Source of the DNA: an archaeon
GTDB taxonomy: Archaea > Asgardarchaeota > Thorarchaeia > Thorarchaeales > Thorarchaeaceae
Direction: 5' to 3'
Assembly (NCBI GenBank): GCA_024276825.1
Contig: JAJRWI010000010.1
Location: forward strand, 64,001-128,000
Length of the DNA: 64,000 nt
How positions within the stretch are numbered: the stretch's first letter is position 1; every line of letters starts with the position of its first letter. Below, piece by piece: positions 32,989-64,000 of the stretch. Position numbers and translations under genes: made by a program. The notes under the pieces are model-generated. The model ran no database searches. It was not told the origin of the DNA and was given only the letters and a program-made list of their open reading frames with translations.

Positions 32989-35415
32989 CTAAGACTTGAA
33001 CTTCTTCATTAGCACAATTACTACTGCCACAAAGCCAACTGCAATGCCAATACCTGCAGGAACTAGTGGATCAACCGTTAGGCCGCCTCCGCCGGTATAG
33101 CCCACAATATGACTGCCCTCAATAATATAGGTATGACCAAAGTCATCTACAAGGTATATGGTAAAGGTGATGTTTGTCCCAGCTGTCATGCCGTTGAGCC
33201 TATATCCCCAACCATCACCATAGTTTTCCATATTAACAACCTGTATTGTGTCCGCATCATTCAGTCTGTAATGAATCTTTACCGATGAAACATAGGCCAT
33301 GTCTGTTGAGCCCCTAAGTAACTTGATTGTGACTCTAATCCCATCGTCGCGTAATTCCTCAGTCACATTGACTGCAGAGATAAGACCACTGACATGCAGC
33401 CAGACCGGACGTGGTTGGTAAGTTGTATTGAAATCATGAAGGTTGAAGACAATCTTGGTATAACCAAAGTCTAAGGCGGTGATGTTGAACTCCATAACCT
33501 GAGATGTGTGGGGGGCTGCCTCAATAATCAGTGAGGGGCGGTCAAACACCAGACTAGTGCCAATGTATATGGTCAGGTTTGCCTTCACACCATAACTCAA
33601 TTCATTTGTAACATTGAGTTTTAGTGTGACGGTTGAGCCTGATTCAATAAGCCCGAGATCAGGGTTCATAATAGCGATGTCGAATCCCAATATGAGCTCG
33701 GACTCAGCATTCTGAGCCAATTCAATTGCCCGTGACGGGTTCCACCAGTCCATTGCATTCTGAGCTTCCGCAAGGTAAGTCTTTGCAAGTTCAATACTCT
33801 TGCCCGATGATTCTAGAGCATCTATCTGACTCTGAACAGTTGAGATTAATGACTCAGCCTGATCCCACAGTTCCAGATATCTATCAACCCAGACACTATC
33901 GCCAAAGACCAGTTTATTGTAGAGGTCCACAACCACATTTCTTCGATTTCTGATGGCATCCATAATGTCCTCTGCGGATATCTTACCATCAGGACCCGTT
34001 GGGGATTTCACAAAGAACACATTTCTGAAATTACCAAGAATCTTGGCATTGTGTGTATCACTGGCTATGTCAAATGACCAGAAATAGGCCTGTTCTCCAA
34101 GACCATGGAAGAAGCCCATATTATCAACTTCAAAAGCATCATAGCCATAGTCCTCAAATTTTTCCCAGACAGCAGCATATTTGCTTGCGAGAGTCGGATG
34201 ACAGAGTATTGCTATGCCACCTTGTGCATGTATTCCATCTACAGCCTCTTGTGTACTCGTCGCGTAGATCTGTTCTGTGAGCGGAAATCCCACAGTATGA
34301 GGAATAGCGGAGAGTTCGGCCCCAACAAAGACCTCACAGTCTAAATCATATTTGTCCTGAATCGCATTTGCCGCAATAGCCCCGTATATGCCATTCTTTG
34401 CGGGCTTGTCATAAGAATGATCAGTAATGACAAAGAAGTCTGCAGCAGTTTCAACAGCGCGGGTAATCATCTCAAATGCAGTGTTTTGGCCATCGCTGTA
34501 TGTTGTGTGGTCATGGATATAACCAGTGAACACCTTATAATCGGCAAGCTCACTCTCATTCAAGTCGGGACCAGGTCGGATTTTGATTACTGCCTTTCCG
34601 CTGGTATCAACTTCCCGGGGTGAGTTCCCAGATAACCAATCGATGACATCTAATGAGAACTGGGCATGATCATCAGGGTCAACAAGGTTAGATATTCTAC
34701 TTCGAAGTTGCATGAAAGGCCCCGCAGAACCAACAGCAACTACTCGTCCACTACCGGAGGTGGCATATGCGACAAAATCACTACCCTTGATTGTGACCAA
34801 TGATGTAGCAGGGCTTGAAACTGTTAATGAGCATCCTTTTAGATCGTCGTTGGTACTATACATTGATTCGACACTATATGTCAGATTATGGTCGGCAATC
34901 TCGCCATTGCTCCTTCTTGCAATACCATTAAGGGCATCAGAATTGAACGTTATGCCATAACCCTCAGAGAGGGGATTCAGATTAACTGCGCTATATCCCC
35001 AAGACTGGGGGTTATTATCAACGCCTACCAGTAATAATCCACCGCCGTTGCTTACAAAATTCTGAATCGCAGTTATTTCGGTGGCGTTGAGAGGTGCCAT
35101 TGGGAAAAATAGGCAAAGCACATCGTATGAGTCAAGAATTCCACTATCCAAAGACTCGAACCAGTTTGTAGAAACATTATACCCATGTTTGGCCAATAAC
35201 CAACCAAATAGGGATGCATTGCCAGGGGTCCACATCTCAGAGGCATTCCTAGTGTGATATTCATCAACTAGAACATTTGCACTGACAAAAGTCTGTGCAA
35301 TGGTTGATTCAACAGGTTTTGGATTAGCACTCGGTTCGACATTTCCAAAGGGGACAGTCATTATGATTAAGAGTGCTAAAATGATAAAGGATGCTTTACG
35401 AAACATATTGGTCAC
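32989..35415 (-). CDS. Surface-anchored protein: GIFT/DUF4350-like domain, PHP hydrolase and Ig-like domains
   Basis: Signal peptide, VDEYH...FVSNGGGLLL...GRVVAVG, PHP motifs HDHT.YSDG/TDH/E/HP/SDTH, and a C-terminal TM followed by KK. Confidence 0.78.
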   Translation of the reverse strand: MTNMFRKASFIILALLIIMTVPFGNVEPSANPKPVESTIAQTFVSANVLVDEYHTRNASEMWTPGNASLFGWLLAKHGYNVSTNWFESLDSGILDSYDVLCLFFPMAPLNATEITAIQNFVSNGGGLLLVGVDNNPQSWGYSAVNLNPLSEGYGITFNSDALNGIARRSNGEIADHNLTYSVESMYSTNDDLKGCSLTVSSPATSLVTIKGSDFVAYATSGSGRVVAVGSAGPFMQLRSRISNLVDPDDHAQFSLDVIDWLSGNSPREVDTSGKAVIKIRPGPDLNESELADYKVFTGYIHDHTTYSDGQNTAFEMITRAVETAADFFVITDHSYDKPAKNGIYGAIAANAIQDKYDLDCEVFVGAELSAIPHTVGFPLTEQIYATSTQEAVDGIHAQGGIAILCHPTLASKYAAVWEKFEDYGYDAFEVDNMGFFHGLGEQAYFWSFDIASDTHNAKILGNFRNVFFVKSPTGPDGKISAEDIMDAIRNRRNVVVDLYNKLVFGDSVWVDRYLELWDQAESLISTVQSQIDALESSGKSIELAKTYLAEAQNAMDWWNPSRAIELAQNAESELILGFDIAIMNPDLGLIESGSTVTLKLNVTNELSYGVKANLTIYIGTSLVFDRPSLIIEAAPHTSQVMEFNITALDFGYTKIVFNLHDFNTTYQPRPVWLHVSGLISAVNVTEELRDDGIRVTIKLLRGSTDMAYVSSVKIHYRLNDADTIQVVNMENYGDGWGYRLNGMTAGTNITFTIYLVDDFGHTYIIEGSHIVGYTGGGGLTVDPLVPAGIGIAVGFVAVVIVLMKKFKS

Positions 35416-50497: not shown

Positions 50498-51793
50498 ATG
50501 CTAGAAAAGATCCTGACCTTAGAATTCAGAAAGTTAGTCACATCAGTGATTGATGACATAAAGAACTATCATAATCGCGTCACCGAGAAGGAGTTTGAGA
50601 AAGACAAGAGGAGGATCTTAAACGAGCTGTTGACAGAGATTGATGTATATCCGCCAGATATTGTGTTAAATGAGGACTATCTTGTCGCTGCAATAGATGG
50701 TTCTGGTAGCGAGAACTTTTTCCTTCTAGATGATATTAGAGTTCATTTAATCAGCACTGCCACAGTAGTACTCAACACAAACACAAAATTTGGGGACCCT
50801 TTCAGACCAATGAGTAACGATGAGGTTTCAAGGGTTATGGGAAAGGATCAGCCCAATCTTGACTTACTATGGCATTTGGGCGTTCGGGAGGACGCGGCTG
50901 AAAAACTTGCAGAGATGTTTGAACTGCTTTATCCCATCGAGGATATTCCCAGCTTGGTCTTACCATTCTTTCAGGATGTAATTCAAAAAACGATTGACAA
51001 ACTGGAGGATTTGCGGGACACTGAGTTTGGGCAGTATATTGACGAGTTTCATAAAATGGTGACCTTGATATCAAGAGGTAATCTATTAACCACCAGTGCG
51101 GCCCACGATGAGTTGCGAAAAACAGCGGAGTATGCTGCTGCAAAACGGCTTCTAATTAGTGACATCAAGCCCCGCTTTCTACTACTTGATGGTGCTATGA
51201 GTGTATTCATTCATTTTGCCAGACAATATCCCTCGTTGCCAAGTGGATTCATGCTACGAGATATTTGCAAAACAGCTCGTGAGAAGGGTACAATTCTTTG
51301 TGCAGTCAGTAAGAATCACACAATTCCATTTGCTCATAGAATTGCAAAGATGGCAGAAGAAAAATTCGGGAAGAACAAAAAGTGGTTCTGTCTGCTGCCA
51401 TCAAACGATGATCCTGGGGGAGGCCTACACATTTACAGTAATAGGACATATATCCCCCCAAGACTAGCAGTACCCTATTTGTTCAGCTTCTCAGGCGATA
51501 ACCGCCCATCAAGAATCGACTTTGACAGAATATGGTGGTTGGAAAATATCTTTGTTGAGGGTGACCCAGAGTCAACAAGGGAGAATGAGATTGCATTGTT
51601 TCGTGAACTAGAGTTCATGTCAAGAGATGCCAGATGGTATGGATATCCTGTGCCCTTGGCATTGGCTCACACGGAATGCAAGATCAGTTATGAGGACCTG
51701 AGCATTGCTAAAGACATACTGTCAGATGTTCTGCATGAGTCTGACCTAGACCCAAGATTCGCAAAGTCCCTCAGGAGCGATTTTAACATGTAA
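50498..51793 (+). CDS. nurA: NurA 5'-3' nuclease
   Basis: AAIDGS, LLLDG, AVSK and GYPVPLALAH motifs; operon context. Confidence 0.88.
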   Translation: MLEKILTLEFRKLVTSVIDDIKNYHNRVTEKEFEKDKRRILNELLTEIDVYPPDIVLNEDYLVAAIDGSGSENFFLLDDIRVHLISTATVVLNTNTKFGDPFRPMSNDEVSRVMGKDQPNLDLLWHLGVREDAAEKLAEMFELLYPIEDIPSLVLPFFQDVIQKTIDKLEDLRDTEFGQYIDEFHKMVTLISRGNLLTTSAAHDELRKTAEYAAAKRLLISDIKPRFLLLDGAMSVFIHFARQYPSLPSGFMLRDICKTAREKGTILCAVSKNHTIPFAHRIAKMAEEKFGKNKKWFCLLPSNDDPGGGLHIYSNRTYIPPRLAVPYLFSFSGDNRPSRIDFDRIWWLENIFVEGDPESTRENEIALFRELEFMSRDARWYGYPVPLALAHTECKISYEDLSIAKDILSDVLHESDLDPRFAKSLRSDFNM

Positions 51794-57042: not shown

Positions 57043-58593
57043 GTGATTTGCCCTTCATCTATGACTGTTAGGGACTTGATGAACAAGGCAAAGATCATTC
57101 TTGTTGAGAACATTGTGTTCATCATCGTCCTCATCATTGGTCTGATTGTTTGGAACTATGTATGGAACTTGGCTGTTGTGGATTATCTTGATTCAGGCTT
57201 TTGGAATTCAAGGCATGTCTGGTTGGGTCCGGGTGTGGATCCCGGGCAGTTCACATTATTTGGGCTCACGATCGAGTATCAGTTCGAGGGATATTCGGAC
57301 TATAGCTTCTTCTATGTTCACTGGGGCTACAACATTCTTTACGGAGTGCTACCATACACACCTGAGTTTGGATATCTGTCCATGGATGGTATTGTGAATC
57401 AGAATGGGGTTTACTTATTCCCACCATTGACCGCCCTGTTATATGGCCTTGGAATATTGATATCCCCTGACAACACTGGTATTGGCCTTTTGTTTACGGT
57501 CTTTGGATATTTGACAGTGTTTCCGGTCTATGGAATTGCAAGGCATCTTTCTAACAACAGGCGGTATGGGGAGGCTGCAGCCTTGACATACATATTAAAT
57601 CCGATGATGTTGTACTATATTGCGTTCCTGTGGATGAACCCCGCCCCATTCATATTCTTCATTTTCAGTGGCATTTACATGTTAATGAGAGGTAGAAGGC
57701 ATACAGGCACTTTGCTAATCGTGATTGCCGCATTATTCAAACAAATGGCATGGTTCGTAGGTCTCCCGCTGATCGTCTATCTGTTGCTCAAGCCAAGAGA
57801 TAGCTCTGAGAGGAATACAAAAGAGAAGGGCTTGCTGATTAGACTTCTTGGATACTTTGACTTCAAAGGGTTCTTTGGAAGTGTCATACTAGTGGTCCTA
57901 TTTGTCGCTGCGATTGCATTGCCATTCTTCCTCTTTCAACCTCACATGATACAGTTCATGTCCCTTGCTGCTGGAGGCTTTGCTCTTGAATCACCCACAG
58001 AACCACCAGGCTACGCCAGTCCCATGCGTCTTCAAATCCTGCCTGTGGTGGCAGGATTGCCGGATCTTGCAATATTGCTGGACTATCTCGTGTTCTACAG
58101 TGTTCTATTATGGTTTGGTGTGACCCTCATTGTTGGACTCTACGCGATAATTCCAAAACACGAGAACCGAATGTATTTCAGACGGTTCATGCTGATAGTC
58201 TTGGTGCTGTTGCTCTGGGTGCATATCACAGGTCCTCGGGGAGTTTACAAGTATTACTTCACCCTGTTTGCGCCGTTCTTTTCAATTCTCGCGACACCCG
58301 CCATAATTCGCAGCAGTAATGAAACATTGAGATTATCGCCCATAGCGTTCGTGACTCCATTTTTCTTCAGTGCGATGATAATGGTTCCGCCAAGACTTGT
58401 CTATCTTGCGAACGTAATTTTCATCCTCATAATCTATGTATTGATAGCAACTGTCAAGAAACCCAAATCGGAAGGGAGAGAGATAGAAATGGATGCTAGT
58501 ACGGCGGATGACTTGAGAGTTCTGAATAGGATTAGAACAAGATTCTTCACTTTGATGACACGACCGAGTCTAAGTAAAGGGAGAGGAAAGTGA
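57043..58593 (+). CDS. GT-C fold membrane glycosyltransferase (GT87/PIG-M-like)
   Basis: EGYSDY, PY, Y.FPPL, LNP, AALFKQ and RG.YKYY; multiple TM helices. Start may be 57061 or 57079. Confidence 0.7.
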   Translation: MICPSSMTVRDLMNKAKIILVENIVFIIVLIIGLIVWNYVWNLAVVDYLDSGFWNSRHVWLGPGVDPGQFTLFGLTIEYQFEGYSDYSFFYVHWGYNILYGVLPYTPEFGYLSMDGIVNQNGVYLFPPLTALLYGLGILISPDNTGIGLLFTVFGYLTVFPVYGIARHLSNNRRYGEAAALTYILNPMMLYYIAFLWMNPAPFIFFIFSGIYMLMRGRRHTGTLLIVIAALFKQMAWFVGLPLIVYLLLKPRDSSERNTKEKGLLIRLLGYFDFKGFFGSVILVVLFVAAIALPFFLFQPHMIQFMSLAAGGFALESPTEPPGYASPMRLQILPVVAGLPDLAILLDYLVFYSVLLWFGVTLIVGLYAIIPKHENRMYFRRFMLIVLVLLLWVHITGPRGVYKYYFTLFAPFFSILATPAIIRSSNETLRLSPIAFVTPFFFSAMIMVPPRLVYLANVIFILIIYVLIATVKKPKSEGREIEMDASTADDLRVLNRIRTRFFTLMTRPSLSKGRGK

Positions 58594-58599
58594 GCCTGA

Positions 58600-60072
58600 G
58601 TGTCCAATTGGTCGCTTATTTGCAAGAGGACCATTTCTGAAACATTGCGTAAACATGTATATTTCTTGATAGTCCTAGTCTTTGCATCTATCGTATGGAG
58701 CATAGTGTTTCATATTGCAGCCATCGAGTTCATGATGGGGATCAGGCCATTCAGAGCATCATGGACAGGGGTTGGTCAGTTCAATCTCTTTGGATATACA
58801 ATAGATTACTATTTTGAAGGTTGGGCAGACCATGATTATTATTATGTGACATGGGGTCAACAGTTTCTGCAGGGATATGTACCGTATACGACAGGATTTG
58901 ACCACTCTGTAATCAATGGTACAGAGTACTTTACACCATACTTCTTTCCACCCCTGTTTGTGTATTTATGCGCCGTTGGTGAGTTAATATCACCAGTGGG
59001 AATTGGACTGCTAATCACAGTATTTGGATTTCTCACTGCATTTCCAATTTATGGAATAGCAAGCATACTATCAAAACGTAGAGATATTGGGGCAATATCG
59101 GCTGCAACATACCTCTTCAATCCACTGGTCCTCTATCATACCGTGTTTCAATGGCTCAACCCAGCCCCATTTGTATTCTTCATATTCCTTGCATTTTATC
59201 TAATATTTAGAGGGAATAGGCTATCAGGAGCCTTAGTAATGGTCACTGCAGCACTCTTTAAGCAGACAGCGCTATTCATGGCCTTCCCACTTATTGCGAT
59301 TCTAATTAGGGTGAATCTGAAAGAGAGAGAAATTGAACCAGAAACAGTGAGTGAGAAAGATGAAAGGCCTGCAAGTGATAGGATTGACCTCTGGGGATTT
59401 GCAAAGACAAGTCTAGCAGTGATCATCTATGCACTTGCAATCTCAAGCCCATATCTTATCAATCTTGGAAAATACATATCTTCAATCTTTATGCGAATCG
59501 GCGTTGTTGACATTCAAGACTTTACAACAACTCCACCAATCTACAGACCGATTACATTCGCAGTTCCTTTTATTGCATTGGGCTTTCCTGAATGGCTAAC
59601 AAGAACTCTTAATTTCCTCACAGTATCATCCATTGGACTGATTGGGGGTATTCTTCTACTTTTTATCTTAATGTTGTTTGAGATCAAAGATGACAGAAAC
59701 ATCAATGGCTACTGGAGAAAGATGCTGTTTCTGACATTGCTGATGATGCTCTGGTTTCACCTCTGGTCCCCAAGGGGAATTTACAAGTACTATTGCATTT
59801 TGCTAATCCCCTTCTTTTCAATTTTGTCGACATCTAGAATGTGTCAAAAAGAGTGGTTAGACATCAGATTCTCAATAATTATGGTGATTTCACCGATTGT
59901 CTTTGGACTAATGATTCTGGTCCCAGACAGAAATATCTACTTATTGTATGTCTTGATGATATTCCTATTCTATGTGGCTCATACAGGATTGGGAATGATA
60001 TATGGCCGCATAACTTGTAGGTTCAGGTTCCCTAATCTTAGGAGAAGAGTCACTCAGCAGTCAGTTCCTTGA
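58600..60072 (+). CDS. GT-C fold membrane glycosyltransferase, tandem paralogue of the upstream gene
   Basis: EGWADH, PY, YFFPPL, FNP, AALFKQ and RGIYKYY. Confidence 0.7.
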   Translation: MSNWSLICKRTISETLRKHVYFLIVLVFASIVWSIVFHIAAIEFMMGIRPFRASWTGVGQFNLFGYTIDYYFEGWADHDYYYVTWGQQFLQGYVPYTTGFDHSVINGTEYFTPYFFPPLFVYLCAVGELISPVGIGLLITVFGFLTAFPIYGIASILSKRRDIGAISAATYLFNPLVLYHTVFQWLNPAPFVFFIFLAFYLIFRGNRLSGALVMVTAALFKQTALFMAFPLIAILIRVNLKEREIEPETVSEKDERPASDRIDLWGFAKTSLAVIIYALAISSPYLINLGKYISSIFMRIGVVDIQDFTTTPPIYRPITFAVPFIALGFPEWLTRTLNFLTVSSIGLIGGILLLFILMLFEIKDDRNINGYWRKMLFLTLLMMLWFHLWSPRGIYKYYCILLIPFFSILSTSRMCQKEWLDIRFSIIMVISPIVFGLMILVPDRNIYLLYVLMIFLFYVAHTGLGMIYGRITCRFRFPNLRRRVTQQSVP

Positions 60073-61216
60073 GCTCTTTCTCTTTCTTGGCAATCTTTTT
60101 CTTTAGGCTCTCAATCCTCTTGTCCAGCTTCTTGGCCTGTTCCATATAGTTGTCCTTACTAATGGCCCCAGAGGCATGACGCTCTTCAATATGATCACGT
60201 AATTGTTGAACTGATTTTATCTCCTTCTTCAATGCCTTGATATCTTGCTTGATCTGTTCAATTCTGTTTTCGTCCTCTGTCCTGAATTGCTTTGCAGGAA
60301 TAATGACACCAAGCTGCTTTGTCGTGCTCTCGGCGAAGTCTTGAAATTGGTTTCTTAACGCTTCAATATTTAACTCGACTTTGGAGACCTTTTCATCAAG
60401 TTTTTCGACCATCTTTTGCAGGTCAAATATTGTATTTATAAGTCTGCGAAGTGTTAGCTCCATCTCTTTGGACACAGCACTTTCAGCAGGGGCCCTCACC
60501 TGTGTCTGCTCACGCTCTGCAACTTTGCTGGGCTTCACTGAGATTGCTAGCCCGCTGAGCCACTTGAATGCACTGACTGCAAAAGTCTTGTTTCCAGGGT
60601 GCTTAATCCCACCACCCTTTCTGAAGATCTCATAGCTACCCGAACAGATGACCCTTCCATCACCATATTCAGCTGCTGCAATCACAGGTGCAGCTGGAGG
60701 ATCAGATGTATCGGAGGTCTTAACGAGGACTGTTGCCTTTCCAGTCACTGATAGAGAGCATCCCGATGGATAGAGTATGTCATTAACATCTTCAGTAGCA
60801 GGATGAGCAGCAATGTCAGACAGGATTGGCATTGTGGGAAGTCCAGCATTGTTCCTGTCGTCCTTGACAGCAGTGTTGTCAAAAGTGATATCAAATGCCT
60901 CAGAGAGTTTGCTCAGATTGTTCATCAAACCACGGTCGCCGCCAGAGAGAGCGAGTAGGAAGAGACCACCACCATTAGCAACAAACTTTTTCAACGCTTC
61001 AATCTCTGGAGCTCTGAGCTTTGAGCTGTTCGGACATCCAAAAACAATTACATTGGCCTCACCAATCTTCTTTGGAAGAATCATATATTCGGTATAGGAC
61101 TCAACTGCGAAGTTATTGTCCTTCAACAATTGAGCAAGATCCGAATATGTAGTGTCGATGCGTCCGCGCTCGTTCTGGGTCCTATCAAAGAAGATCGTTT
61201 TTCTTTCACTGCTCAA
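60050..61216 (-). CDS. GIFT (IFT52/GldG-like) domain protein with a C-terminal coiled coil
   Basis: TIFFD...E, EIEALKKFVANGGGL, GGD....NL..L...F.I.F, YP.G.SL.V and GRV..SGS...N......FKWL, then long heptad repeats. Confidence 0.72.
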   Translation of the reverse strand: MSSERKTIFFDRTQNERGRIDTTYSDLAQLLKDNNFAVESYTEYMILPKKIGEANVIVFGCPNSSKLRAPEIEALKKFVANGGGLFLLALSGGDRGLMNNLSKLSEAFDITFDNTAVKDDRNNAGLPTMPILSDIAAHPATEDVNDILYPSGCSLSVTGKATVLVKTSDTSDPPAAPVIAAAEYGDGRVICSGSYEIFRKGGGIKHPGNKTFAVSAFKWLSGLAISVKPSKVAEREQTQVRAPAESAVSKEMELTLRRLINTIFDLQKMVEKLDEKVSKVELNIEALRNQFQDFAESTTKQLGVIIPAKQFRTEDENRIEQIKQDIKALKKEIKSVQQLRDHIEERHASGAISKDNYMEQAKKLDKRIESLKKKIAKKEKELKELTAE

Positions 61217-61327
61217 TGCATTTCACCACATTTACCAATACATGTTAGCATGCGCTTAGACTAATGTAATTTTTGCATGCGATTCAATTCGAATATTTTA
61301 TCAAATTGTCAAGCTGAATATAATGTC

Positions 61328-61756
61328 ATGAGTAATTCAGAGAACTGCATATTCTGTAAGATAGTCAAGGGTGAGATTCCTGCATCGGTCATTTTTGAAG
61401 ATGATCAATGCATGGCATTCATGGACATATTTCCAGTCAGTAAGGGACACTGTCTATTAATTCCAAAAGAACACTATGTCAACATGATGGATGTAGACCT
61501 AGATGTTCTAGCTCACCTTAGTAAGAAACTGGCTGAACTGACTCGCAAGGTGCACAAAGTCTTGAGGCCTGATGGAATCCTCAACTCGGTGGCAAATGGA
61601 AAGGGTGCAGGACAAGAAGTCCCACACCTGCATTTTCATATTATTCCGAGAAATGTTGGAGACCCATTTGGGTTCAGGTTCCCGCCAGACTATCGTGAGT
61701 CGATGGCCCCAAGAGAGGAACTCGACTCGTTGGCGGAAAAGTTTAGGAGTGCTTAA
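61328..61756 (+). CDS. HIT family nucleotide hydrolase
   Basis: CIFCKIV, GH.LLIPK and AGQEVPHLHFHIIPR. Confidence 0.94.
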   Translation: MSNSENCIFCKIVKGEIPASVIFEDDQCMAFMDIFPVSKGHCLLIPKEHYVNMMDVDLDVLAHLSKKLAELTRKVHKVLRPDGILNSVANGKGAGQEVPHLHFHIIPRNVGDPFGFRFPPDYRESMAPREELDSLAEKFRSA

Positions 61757-62196: not shown

Positions 62197-62302
62197 GTCT
62201 AAAGAGGGGTTATTACCAGTTAATGAAGAATTCGCTGTGGATTCACAATCTTGAAAGAGGAAGAGCTTATCAATGAAAAGTATCCACAATTAATTGACAA
62301 AG

Positions 62303-64000
62303 ATGGACCGTGATAATGAATCTGAACCTGATCAGGCAACACTAGACGATTTCTTTGAATCAGTCCGTGATGCAGAGGACCAAGGTCATAATCAGCAGCA
62401 AGACCAGCCCGCATCTAAGGATCGGAGGGCTGAAGAAACAGAAGAGATCATCGAGCCACCAGAAGAGGAGCTTGAGGACTATCCAGTTGATATTGATCAT
62501 GCCCCGCCAAAAGAGATTGAAGACATTCCGCCATTGAATGATATTGGTGAAGAAGACACCCCTGATAATCTTCCGCCGTCGATTCTCATATCTGTTGATT
62601 ATTCAGGAGCAAGAAAGAAAGCAGTGCTGAAGTTATACAATCCTGAAACCGAACGTGTCTATTTCTGGTATGACAACACCGGTCATCAGCCTTATTGTTA
62701 TACGGACTTTCCGCCACAAGTTGCTGAGAAAATTGCGAAACGAAACAAAGGCTTTGTTAGAGTTGAAACTGTCAATCTAAAGGACCTCATAAGAGATCAA
62801 GAGAGAGAAATGACCAAAGTTATTGCAGGAGACCCATTGTCCATCGGAGGAGCGAGAGGTTCAATAAGGGAGTTTCTAGTTAAGCGAGGCCCGATGGGTG
62901 AAGAGATCAATCATGCATGGGAGGCAAACATAAGATATCATAATTGTTACACTTACGATCAGAACCTTGTTCCGGGCATGACATATAGGATAGAGAATGG
63001 GGAGCTTATTCATGTTTCGCCCAAGGTGGACAAGAAGACACTTGACAGATTTGTCAAGACTCTCGGTGAGGAGGAAGGTATAGAGGACATCATTGAAACC
63101 TATTCACCAATGTTCTTTACAGATGCGCCATACATAAAGCGAATTGCTGTAGACATTGAAGTGTTCACTCCGGTCAGAAACAGGGTGCCCGACGCAAAGA
63201 CTGCCCCATACAAGGTCATTGCTATTGGACTTTCAGACAACGAGGGATTCAACAAGTGCTTTGTGCTCAAAATGAAGGGCATCAATTGGGGCAAGAAGAA
63301 GAAGGACTTTCCAAAGGAACTTGAGATTGTGACTTTCGATGATGAGAGAGAGATGTTGATTGAAGCATTTAAGATACTTGACCAATATCCCATAGTCCTG
63401 ACTTTTGTGGGTGATGCCTTTGACCTTCAGTATTTGTACAATCGGGCAGACAAACTGAATATTGACAAGAGCAAGTATTGTCCGATAAGACTCAGTCAGA
63501 ATAGAGAGACCGCCTTCATGAAGAGGGGTGTACATATAGACCTTTATCGGTTTCTCAAAAACCCCTCCATTAGAATCTATGCATTGTCGGCAGCATATGA
63601 TCAGATAAAGCTGGAAACGGTTGCTCAAGGACTGTTAGGTGAGGGGAAGCTCGAACTGTCAACAGACATATCTTCACTCTCATACTATGAACTTGCCCAT
63701 TATTGTTGGAGAGATGCCAATATTACACTTAGACTGACAATGTTCGATAACAACCTGTTGATACGTCTGATAATCCTGTTCATGCGTATCTCACGCTTGT
63801 CCATGGAAGATGTCACCAGACTTTACATATCATCATGGTTGCAGTCATTGTTTAGACAAGAGCATCGGCGGCATCACTATTTGATTCCTCGACAGATTGA
63901 CATTGAAACCGCCAAGAGTTCAGAGGCTCATACCGAGTCTGTAATCAAGGACAAGGCCTTCAAGGGGGCCATAGTAATCGAGCCGATAGCAGGTGTTCAT
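62303..64000 (+). CDS. polB1: Family B DNA polymerase, PolB1 type; 3'-truncated by the window edge (absent from the ORF track)
   Basis: Manual translation gives SVDYSG..KKAVLKLY...YDNTGHQPY, ExoI AVDIEV, ExoII TFVGDAFD, ExoIII YCWRDA and KGAIVIEP. Confidence 0.93.
   Translation, partial: MDRDNESEPDQATLDDFFESVRDAEDQGHNQQQDQPASKDRRAEETEEIIEPPEEELEDYPVDIDHAPPKEIEDIPPLNDIGEEDTPDNLPPSILISVDYSGARKKAVLKLYNPETERVYFWYDNTGHQPYCYTDFPPQVAEKIAKRNKGFVRVETVNLKDLIRDQEREMTKVIAGDPLSIGGARGSIREFLVKRGPMGEEINHAWEANIRYHNCYTYDQNLVPGMTYRIENGELIHVSPKVDKKTLDRFVKTLGEEEGIEDIIETYSPMFFTDAPYIKRIAVDIEVFTPVRNRVPDAKTAPYKVIAIGLSDNEGFNKCFVLKMKGINWGKKKKDFPKELEIVTFDDEREMLIEAFKILDQYPIVLTFVGDAFDLQYLYNRADKLNIDKSKYCPIRLSQNRETAFMKRGVHIDLYRFLKNPSIRIYALSAAYDQIKLETVAQGLLGEGKLELSTDISSLSYYELAHYCWRDANITLRLTMFDNNLLIRLIILFMRISRLSMEDVTRLYISSWLQSLFRQEHRRHHYLIPRQIDIETAKSSEAHTESVIKDKAFKGAIVIEPIAGVH

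Follow-up and report, generated by a model that had tools for sequence, protein, structure and literature searches.

A nearly universal soluble Asgard protein family with an IFT52-type GIFT head and a helical-hairpin tail

The 64,000-nucleotide stretch of DNA analysed here (the window) comes from an archaeon of the Thorarchaeaceae (Asgardarchaeota; assembly GCA_024276825.1, contig JAJRWI010000010.1, positions 64,001 to 128,000) and carries on its reverse strand a gene (60050..61216) that starts with TTG and encodes a soluble protein of 388 amino acids, followed by the stop codon, in which a GIFT head is joined to a coiled-coil tail. The head is, with good support, a true homologue of the N-terminal domain of IFT52 (IFT52N), a core component of the IFT-B1 complex of intraflagellar transport (IFT), and it is likewise well supported that the family represented by this protein is nearly universal across the Asgard genomes searched. 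As to its function, the reading that we favour, at somewhat less than an even chance and by analogy, is that of a cytosolic adaptor outside IFT, whose head would act as a binding platform and whose terminal hairpin, flexibly tethered to the head, would serve assembly or docking.

The GIFT domain (residues 5-222; 60551..61204, minus strand) has an alpha/beta fold of the class-I-glutamine-amidotransferase-like type that is closest to IFT52N. Among the Pfam families, the head is best matched by IFT52_GIFT (PF23355; 57.7 bits at a cut-off of 27.2, E 1.2e-15), a model that matches 74 of 74 members of the family. DUF4350 (PF14258; 36.7 bits, cut-off 30.4) overlaps this match at a lower score and is found in 34 of the 74, while ABC_transp_aux (PF09822) reaches 22.7 bits and hence stays under its cut-off of 34.7. 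When the PDB was searched with phmmer, IFT52 was the sole significant match (best E 2.3e-9), with the mouse protein aligned over residues 5-221; a profile made from the 74 members aligned with both halves of the domain in the IFT52 crystal structures (E 4.8e-32) and otherwise retrieved only coiled-coil noise. Foldseek placed IFT52N first (E 3.3e-19, TM-score 0.86-0.91, root-mean-square deviation [rmsd] 2.0-2.2 Å), followed by OST48 at about 1e-10, and the alpha/beta fold of IFT52N spans the whole head domain. A preliminary description of this DNA had proposed that residues ~5-220 follow the IFT52 N-terminal domain, and both the sequence searches and the fold comparison that it called for bear this out. 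Because the match lists hold no structure of an exported prokaryotic GIFT domain, the closest solved fold is not necessarily that of the closest relative.

The Asgard head is thus homologous to the GIFT domain of IFT52 (OSM-6/BLD1; PF23355; PDB 5FMR, 5FMS, 8BD7) and belongs to the same domain superfamily as the exported prokaryotic GIFT proteins of the GldG/ABC_transp_aux (PF09822) and DUF4350 (PF14258) types. The exported proteins, which are often large and combine several domains (e.g., subtilase or CBM domains), have a signal peptide or an anchor, whereas the Thorarchaeota protein is leaderless; moreover, ABC_transp_aux outscored IFT52_GIFT in the two exported GIFT paralogues of the source genome that were scanned against Pfam. 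The window itself encodes an exported GIFT paralogue of 808 amino acids (32989-35415, minus strand), in which ABC_transp_aux outscores IFT52_GIFT and weak CBM_56 and PHP matches occur. OST48/Wbp1 of the eukaryotic oligosaccharyltransferase (OST) is luminal and membrane-anchored, and it resembles the family only marginally in sequence, OST48_N being matched by 6 of the 74 members.

Neither a signal peptide nor a transmembrane segment is present in the 388-residue protein: its top 19-residue Kyte-Doolittle window reaches 1.19 and its N-terminus is charged, and none of ~70 representative clusters of the family has a hydrophobic N-terminus or a transmembrane segment. From these sequence features, a cytosolic location is predicted with good support. 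In a full-length AlphaFold2 model built from the 74-sequence alignment, residues 6-220 form a compact alpha/beta domain (pLDDT ~98) that is followed by a low-confidence linker (225-250). The parts of the tail, all on the minus strand, are a flexible linker (residues 223-249; 60470..60550; pLDDT 47-76), a first heptad helix or stalk (residues 250-302; 60311..60469; pLDDT ~74), in which 87% of the a/d positions are hydrophobic, and a C-terminal module (residues 308-388; 60053..60295; pLDDT 95-98) that folds into an antiparallel hairpin of two helices (314-348 and 354-387) and retains a pLDDT of 95.4 when modelled alone. Over residues 250-387, core hydrophobic residues occupy 72% of the a/d positions versus 12% elsewhere; in a control stretch within the GIFT domain the corresponding values are 38% and 31%. 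The leaderless protein with a linker and about 135 residues of heptad repeats that the preliminary description had outlined is therefore recovered, the heptad region measuring ~138 residues.

An identical 388-residue protein is already in the databases, where it has more than 300 homologues (383-427 residues, 58-92% identity); those that are named stem almost entirely from metagenome-assembled genomes of Thorarchaeota and are labelled 'hypothetical' or 'DUF4350'. A search of 1.84 billion representative sequences with the head alone yielded 917 matches, 63 of them with E<=1e-30. The ~70 leaderless clusters comprise proteins of 330-570 residues with charged helical tails, in which the GIFT domain begins within the first ten residues ('FD.TQ/H.ERG.I..NY'), and their named members belong to Thorarchaeota, Promethearchaeati, Ranarchaeia, Promethearchaeota and Helarchaeales. 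When 400 genomes of the phylum were searched with a profile (E<=1e-10), 378 of them matched, including 87 of the 90 high-quality genomes, and so did 78 of 85 genera; best E-values lay between 1e-76 and 1e-99 in most Asgard families, some families gave nothing but weaker matches, and three small families gave no match in this search. The source genome (2.9 Mb, 98% complete) encodes the 60050-61216 product as its sole leaderless GIFT protein: five of the seven other GIFT-like matches were examined, and all five are multidomain proteins that are exported or anchored. Asgard paralogues of 290-420 residues make up a second leaderless group, with strong matches in two families, at four to five per genome. 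Rab-like GTPases are present in IFT-B1, and in one cluster from a metagenome contig (P0187), a head of the soluble IFT52-like GIFT type is fused with a small Ras/Rab-like GTPase at the C-terminus (Pfam Ras, E 7.9e-33); this fusion is represented by a single cluster, and its gene neighbours are uninformative.

We compared alignment columns of the head among 68 core members of the family, 11 paralogous and 25 eukaryotic sequences. Columns shared by the Asgard proteins and IFT52 are F10, E16, P62, E71, G82-G83, G92-G93-(D/E)94, N100, P173, G187, G193 and F198; R17, G18, C61, D119, H138, C153 and Y195 are conserved on the Asgard side only, and K125, Y126, H128, P129, K130, E131 and R204 on the eukaryotic side only. 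The residues C61, H138, C153, D94 and D119 are each kept in at least 90% of the 68 members, and largely also in the Loki-type paralogues, while IFT52 has G/A, R, A, E and R, respectively, in these columns. Several of the conserved residues follow strand ends, and R17, G18, C61, D94, N100, D119, H138 and C153 may for this reason mark a binding or ligand site. The KY.HPKE patch of IFT52 is absent from the Asgard family. K130 is found in 25 of the 25 eukaryotic sequences and R204 in 23 of them, whereas 66 of the 68 family members have N, T or S in the K130 column and the R204 column is occupied by A, S, T or V; in IFT52, K130 and R204 contact IFT57/38, and their mutation abolishes IFT-B1/B2 binding (PMC4818760).

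The turn of the terminal hairpin reads H-A-S-G-A-I-S-K-D-N-Y. In its strict form this motif occurs in 114 of 120 Thorarchaeota-type homologues and in 21 of 62 representative clusters, with visible variants in several more. The stalk helix (250-302) is conserved among Thorarchaeota-type homologues only, and the tails of different lineages, which contain Pro-rich or acidic linkers of 100-300 residues, cannot be aligned before their last ~75 residues. The terminal module itself aligns across distant Asgard lineages, with the consensus 'EEL.aE...LE.KL.S...L..FiEKK..SGKi....Y.KQ.KKLE.D'. When a profile of this module was run against the PDB, 8whn_A alone fell below E 0.001 (E 2.6e-4, 24 bits); this chain is the cytoplasmic four-helix bundle of OST1 (ribophorin I) from the Lokiarchaeon MK-D1, and the match covers its second hairpin, the first being weakly matched. 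Vps28 N-terminal hairpins came next (E 0.09-0.17), and of 32 modules, 7 were matched by the Pfam family CdvA (best E 2.9e-4). A Foldseek search with just the hairpin gave no match at E<=0.001; its top ranks (E 0.5-1.2) were taken by arms of seryl-tRNA synthetases and by ESCRT-I headpiece chains (rmsd 0.9-1.0 Å). Of the latter, 2p22_B ranked second and 6vme_I tenth, and the Vps28 hairpin was superposed at 0.9 Å over 57 residues.

A turn of the type aromatic-x2-G-x-(I/L/M)-x4-(Y/F) is common to the tail hairpin, the Asgard OST1 bundle (8WHN, PMC11417166) and the ESCRT-I headpiece; the likeness to the headpiece hairpins (Vps28 N-terminus, Vps23 steadiness box) is not significant. The same motif is also present in unrelated small helical proteins of the source genome, and we therefore regard it as a widely used type of hairpin that is by itself no mark of either ESCRT-I or OST. 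The examples include two helical proteins with the turns ..SGLISKQEY.. and ..RGYIPEEEY..: one of 78 residues (L051:1492-1728, minus strand, contig C18) and one of 203 residues (L052:1039-1650, plus strand, contig C33), in the latter of which a coiled coil is followed by a Pro/Ala-rich linker and then the hairpin. An open frame of 981 residues on contig C45 of this genome matches the hairpin module as well (E 8.9e-5). A homodimer prediction with the whole tail in two copies scored 0.06 relative to a mark of 0.42, which is no evidence either way.

The tentatively favoured adaptor reading combines these two modules. The head would offer a binding surface in the manner of the non-enzymatic GIFT domain of IFT52, which in IFT-B is cradled by the TPRs of IFT88 and the coiled coil of IFT57/38 (PMC4818760, PMC9753473). 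IFT52N has no catalytic residues and binds no sugar, and it provides a precedent for a partner-binding role of a GIFT domain that is not enzymatic (PMC4818760, PMC9753473). The terminal hairpin would serve assembly by packing against its own copies or against the helical hairpins of a partner, possibly a bundle of the OST1 or ESCRT-I-headpiece type, and the flexible linker would let the head reach its target. Several points weigh against this reading: no partner was identified, the gene neighbourhoods vary between lineages, about half of the representative clusters are without the strict hairpin motif, and the near-invariant C61, H138 and C153 could indicate a metal site or catalysis instead of a plain binding surface. 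The alternatives considered below are compatible with an adaptor role and are not mutually exclusive with it.

One of them is that the family includes the direct antecedent of IFT52, the eukaryotic GIFT domain having been derived from the soluble Asgard proteins or their Loki-type paralogues as a building block of IFT-B; we consider this rather unlikely. IFT52 is the best match of the head in Pfam, among PDB sequences and among PDB folds, and in both proteins, each of them cytosolic, the GIFT domain sits at the extreme N-terminus. The reciprocal comparison by hidden Markov models (HMMs) that the preliminary description had suggested did not discriminate soluble from exported domains, however: with the HMM of the Asgard family, IFT52 scored 85-107 bits and some exported archaeal or bacterial domains 120-200 bits, and with the HMM of the eukaryotic GIFT domains, soluble Asgard proteins scored 45-107 bits versus 20-111 bits for exported and other domains. 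A ranking by raw HMM scores hence failed to single out the soluble family and was rejected as a reciprocal test.

Phylogenetic trees were computed with FastTree (159 rows) and IQ-TREE (LG+C20+F+G4; 93 rows, 225 columns) from a comparison set that was picked by similarity to the Thorarchaeota protein and is without classical GldG, DUF4350 and OST48 sequences, a composition that itself weakens any inference of ancestry. FastTree put IFT52 elsewhere, in a mixed and weakly supported cluster. A quick IQ-TREE search placed it inside the core soluble Asgard family (SH-aLRT 94 for the split), and a careful search beside the second soluble group of leaderless paralogues, which is also Asgard. In this careful, site-heterogeneous tree, IFT52 and all soluble Asgard proteins were separated from 34 mostly exported domains with an ultrafast bootstrap (UFBoot) of 95 and an SH-aLRT of 86, the bootstrap being unconverged. 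In the approximately unbiased (AU) test, a tree that groups IFT52 with 27 mostly exported domains exceeded the free tree by 0.46 log-likelihood units (p-AU 0.497), and the 95/86 branch was consequently dropped as support for ancestry. Because the trees disagree and the AU test admits both arrangements, the alignment cannot place IFT52. On the question of branching that the preliminary description had named as its refutation, the careful search groups IFT52 with soluble Asgard proteins, the AU test admits the exported grouping and FastTree differs.

IFT52 also has central and C-terminal domains of its own, instead of which the Asgard tail consists of an unrelated heptad stalk and hairpin. The central IFT88/IFT70-binding region (PF23352) has no match in the 388-residue protein, and the C-terminal IFT46-binding domain (PF21178) is absent, the tail matching coiled-coil families only. 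A search of the source genome for Itf52_C and IFT52_central (E<=0.01) and for Ribophorin_I found no match, which is weak evidence, since control genomes were silent as well. Together with the missing K130 and R204, the lack of both domains in the protein argues against a direct antecedent of IFT52. What stands of the precursor-like scaffold put forward in the preliminary description is a cytoplasmic protein with an IFT52N-homologous head and a heptad tail; the IFT part stays conjectural. A combined version, in which the head of IFT52 was inherited from the soluble Asgard family or the Loki-type paralogues, where it may have belonged to an adaptor of ESCRT-I or translocon type that docks by its hairpin, is in our estimation unlikely.

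The proposal that the protein is an accessory subunit of the ESCRT-I type, with stalk and hairpin entering, like a steadiness box, the headpiece formed by the Thorarchaeota Vps28N-Vps22 fusion and Znr_CC_PH_SB and with the GIFT head in place of the UEV domain, appears quite improbable. The order of head, linker, stalk helix and hairpin mirrors that of Vps23, and the two ESCRT proteins whose genes lie 11 kb away have similar hairpin turns; the Vps28, CdvA and headpiece matches described above point in the same direction. These matches all fall short of significance (Foldseek E 0.7-1.2), however, and generic hairpins, such as the arms of seryl-tRNA synthetases, reach similar scores; the presence of the motif in unrelated small proteins counts against the proposal too. 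Outside Thorarchaeota, no ESCRT gene adjoins the family at the loci sampled, and the family is not listed in a survey of ESCRT proteins (PMC10936438). The ESCRT genes on the same contig (L048), ~11 kb past the GIFT gene, form a five-gene module that encodes a Vps28N-Vps22 fusion, a Vps25-like protein, Vps4, one ESCRT-III protein and Znr_CC_PH_SB, the last with the C-terminal hairpin '..FREGRLVPEDF..'.

It is very improbable that the protein is a cytosolic scaffold linked to N-glycosylation or the translocon, placed on the cytoplasmic face of this machinery, where an OST1-like helical module might attach it to ribosomes. The best PDB profile match of the hairpin is the MK-D1 OST1 domain, and the Asgard OST1 cytoplasmic domain binds eukaryotic ribosomes in pull-downs (PMC11417166); the 24-bit match falls, however, in helical, compositionally biased sequence. 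In OST1, two hairpins per chain follow a membrane-anchored ribophorin I domain, whereas the Thorarchaeota GIFT protein has one hairpin and neither a transmembrane segment nor a Ribophorin_I domain. In one large Asgard family, the GIFT gene is immediately preceded, at 12 of 12 loci and in the same orientation, by a gene for a GMPPB-like sugar-1-phosphate nucleotidyltransferase (NTP_transferase+LbH), and the linkage recurs in a second family and a third lineage (loci L008-L019, L034, L035, L037; Loki-type); at L035, a second GIFT gene (228 residues) and a Polysacc_synt gene (967 residues) are found downstream. This linkage is absent from Thorarchaeota and from most other families sampled; furthermore, the GIFT domain of OST48 is luminal and purified IFT52 binds no sugars (PMC4818760). 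Very unlikely as well is an enzymatic or metal-binding head, in which the near-invariant Cys and His residues would form a catalytic or zinc site lost in IFT52: these residues are indeed replaced there and the fold is of the class I glutamine amidotransferase type (PMC4818760), but no amidotransferase family exceeds its Pfam cut-off.

In Thorarchaeota and their nearest relatives, the GIFT gene is convergent with a HerA-Mre11-Rad50 row and divergent from a HIT-family gene. The latter (61277..61756, plus strand), conserved in Thorarchaeota, lies 60 bp upstream of the GIFT gene in the window; the convergent neighbour (58600..60072, plus strand; 490 residues, no Pfam family) overlaps the GIFT gene by 23 bp at its 3' end and is the last gene of the row, which in this group ends in one or two unknown genes of 460-540 residues. 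In the window these are the paralogues 57043-58593 and 58600-60072 (plus strand; 516 and 490 residues, 37% identical, no Pfam family), which close the row at the position expected for NurA; related Thorarchaeota and a sister family keep one or two copies of this type (L004, L005, L007, L036, L043). Directly upstream of HerA is a 431-residue gene with no Pfam match (50498-51793, plus strand), and a relative (L006/L007) has an unannotated 430-residue gene at the same place. A family B DNA polymerase gene runs off the end of the window (62294-64000); its counterpart in this relative (L006/L007:3156-6932) encodes 1258 residues with a weak LAGLIDADG match, probably an intein. In another Asgard family, a gene with a PCC domain lies directly upstream of the GIFT gene, and among the loci sampled no gene linkage is constant across the phylum.

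We found no paper that ties IFT52 to Asgard archaea or describes a soluble Asgard GIFT family. In the parts of the supplement of Eme et al. (2023) that were available, an IFT category is present and no entry for IFT52 or GIFT was found, and the soluble family goes unmentioned in Makarova et al. (2024). Already known is that the Pfam model IFT52_GIFT matches these Asgard proteins automatically. Accounts of how the intraflagellar transport machinery arose usually start from coat-like proteins and small GTPases, and for IFT52, the backbone of IFT-B1, no cytosolic prokaryotic counterpart has been known. If the ancestry considered above were true, IFT52 would be the first core scaffold part of IFT-B1 with an identifiable Asgard antecedent that was already cytosolic. 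Even if the family is not the ancestor of IFT52, it is a conserved and hitherto undescribed Asgard protein whose tail links it, weakly, to two eukaryote-like systems, the OST/translocon and ESCRT-I; and as a near-universal soluble Asgard protein with an IFT52-type head, it is a concrete and testable candidate for the origin of IFT52.

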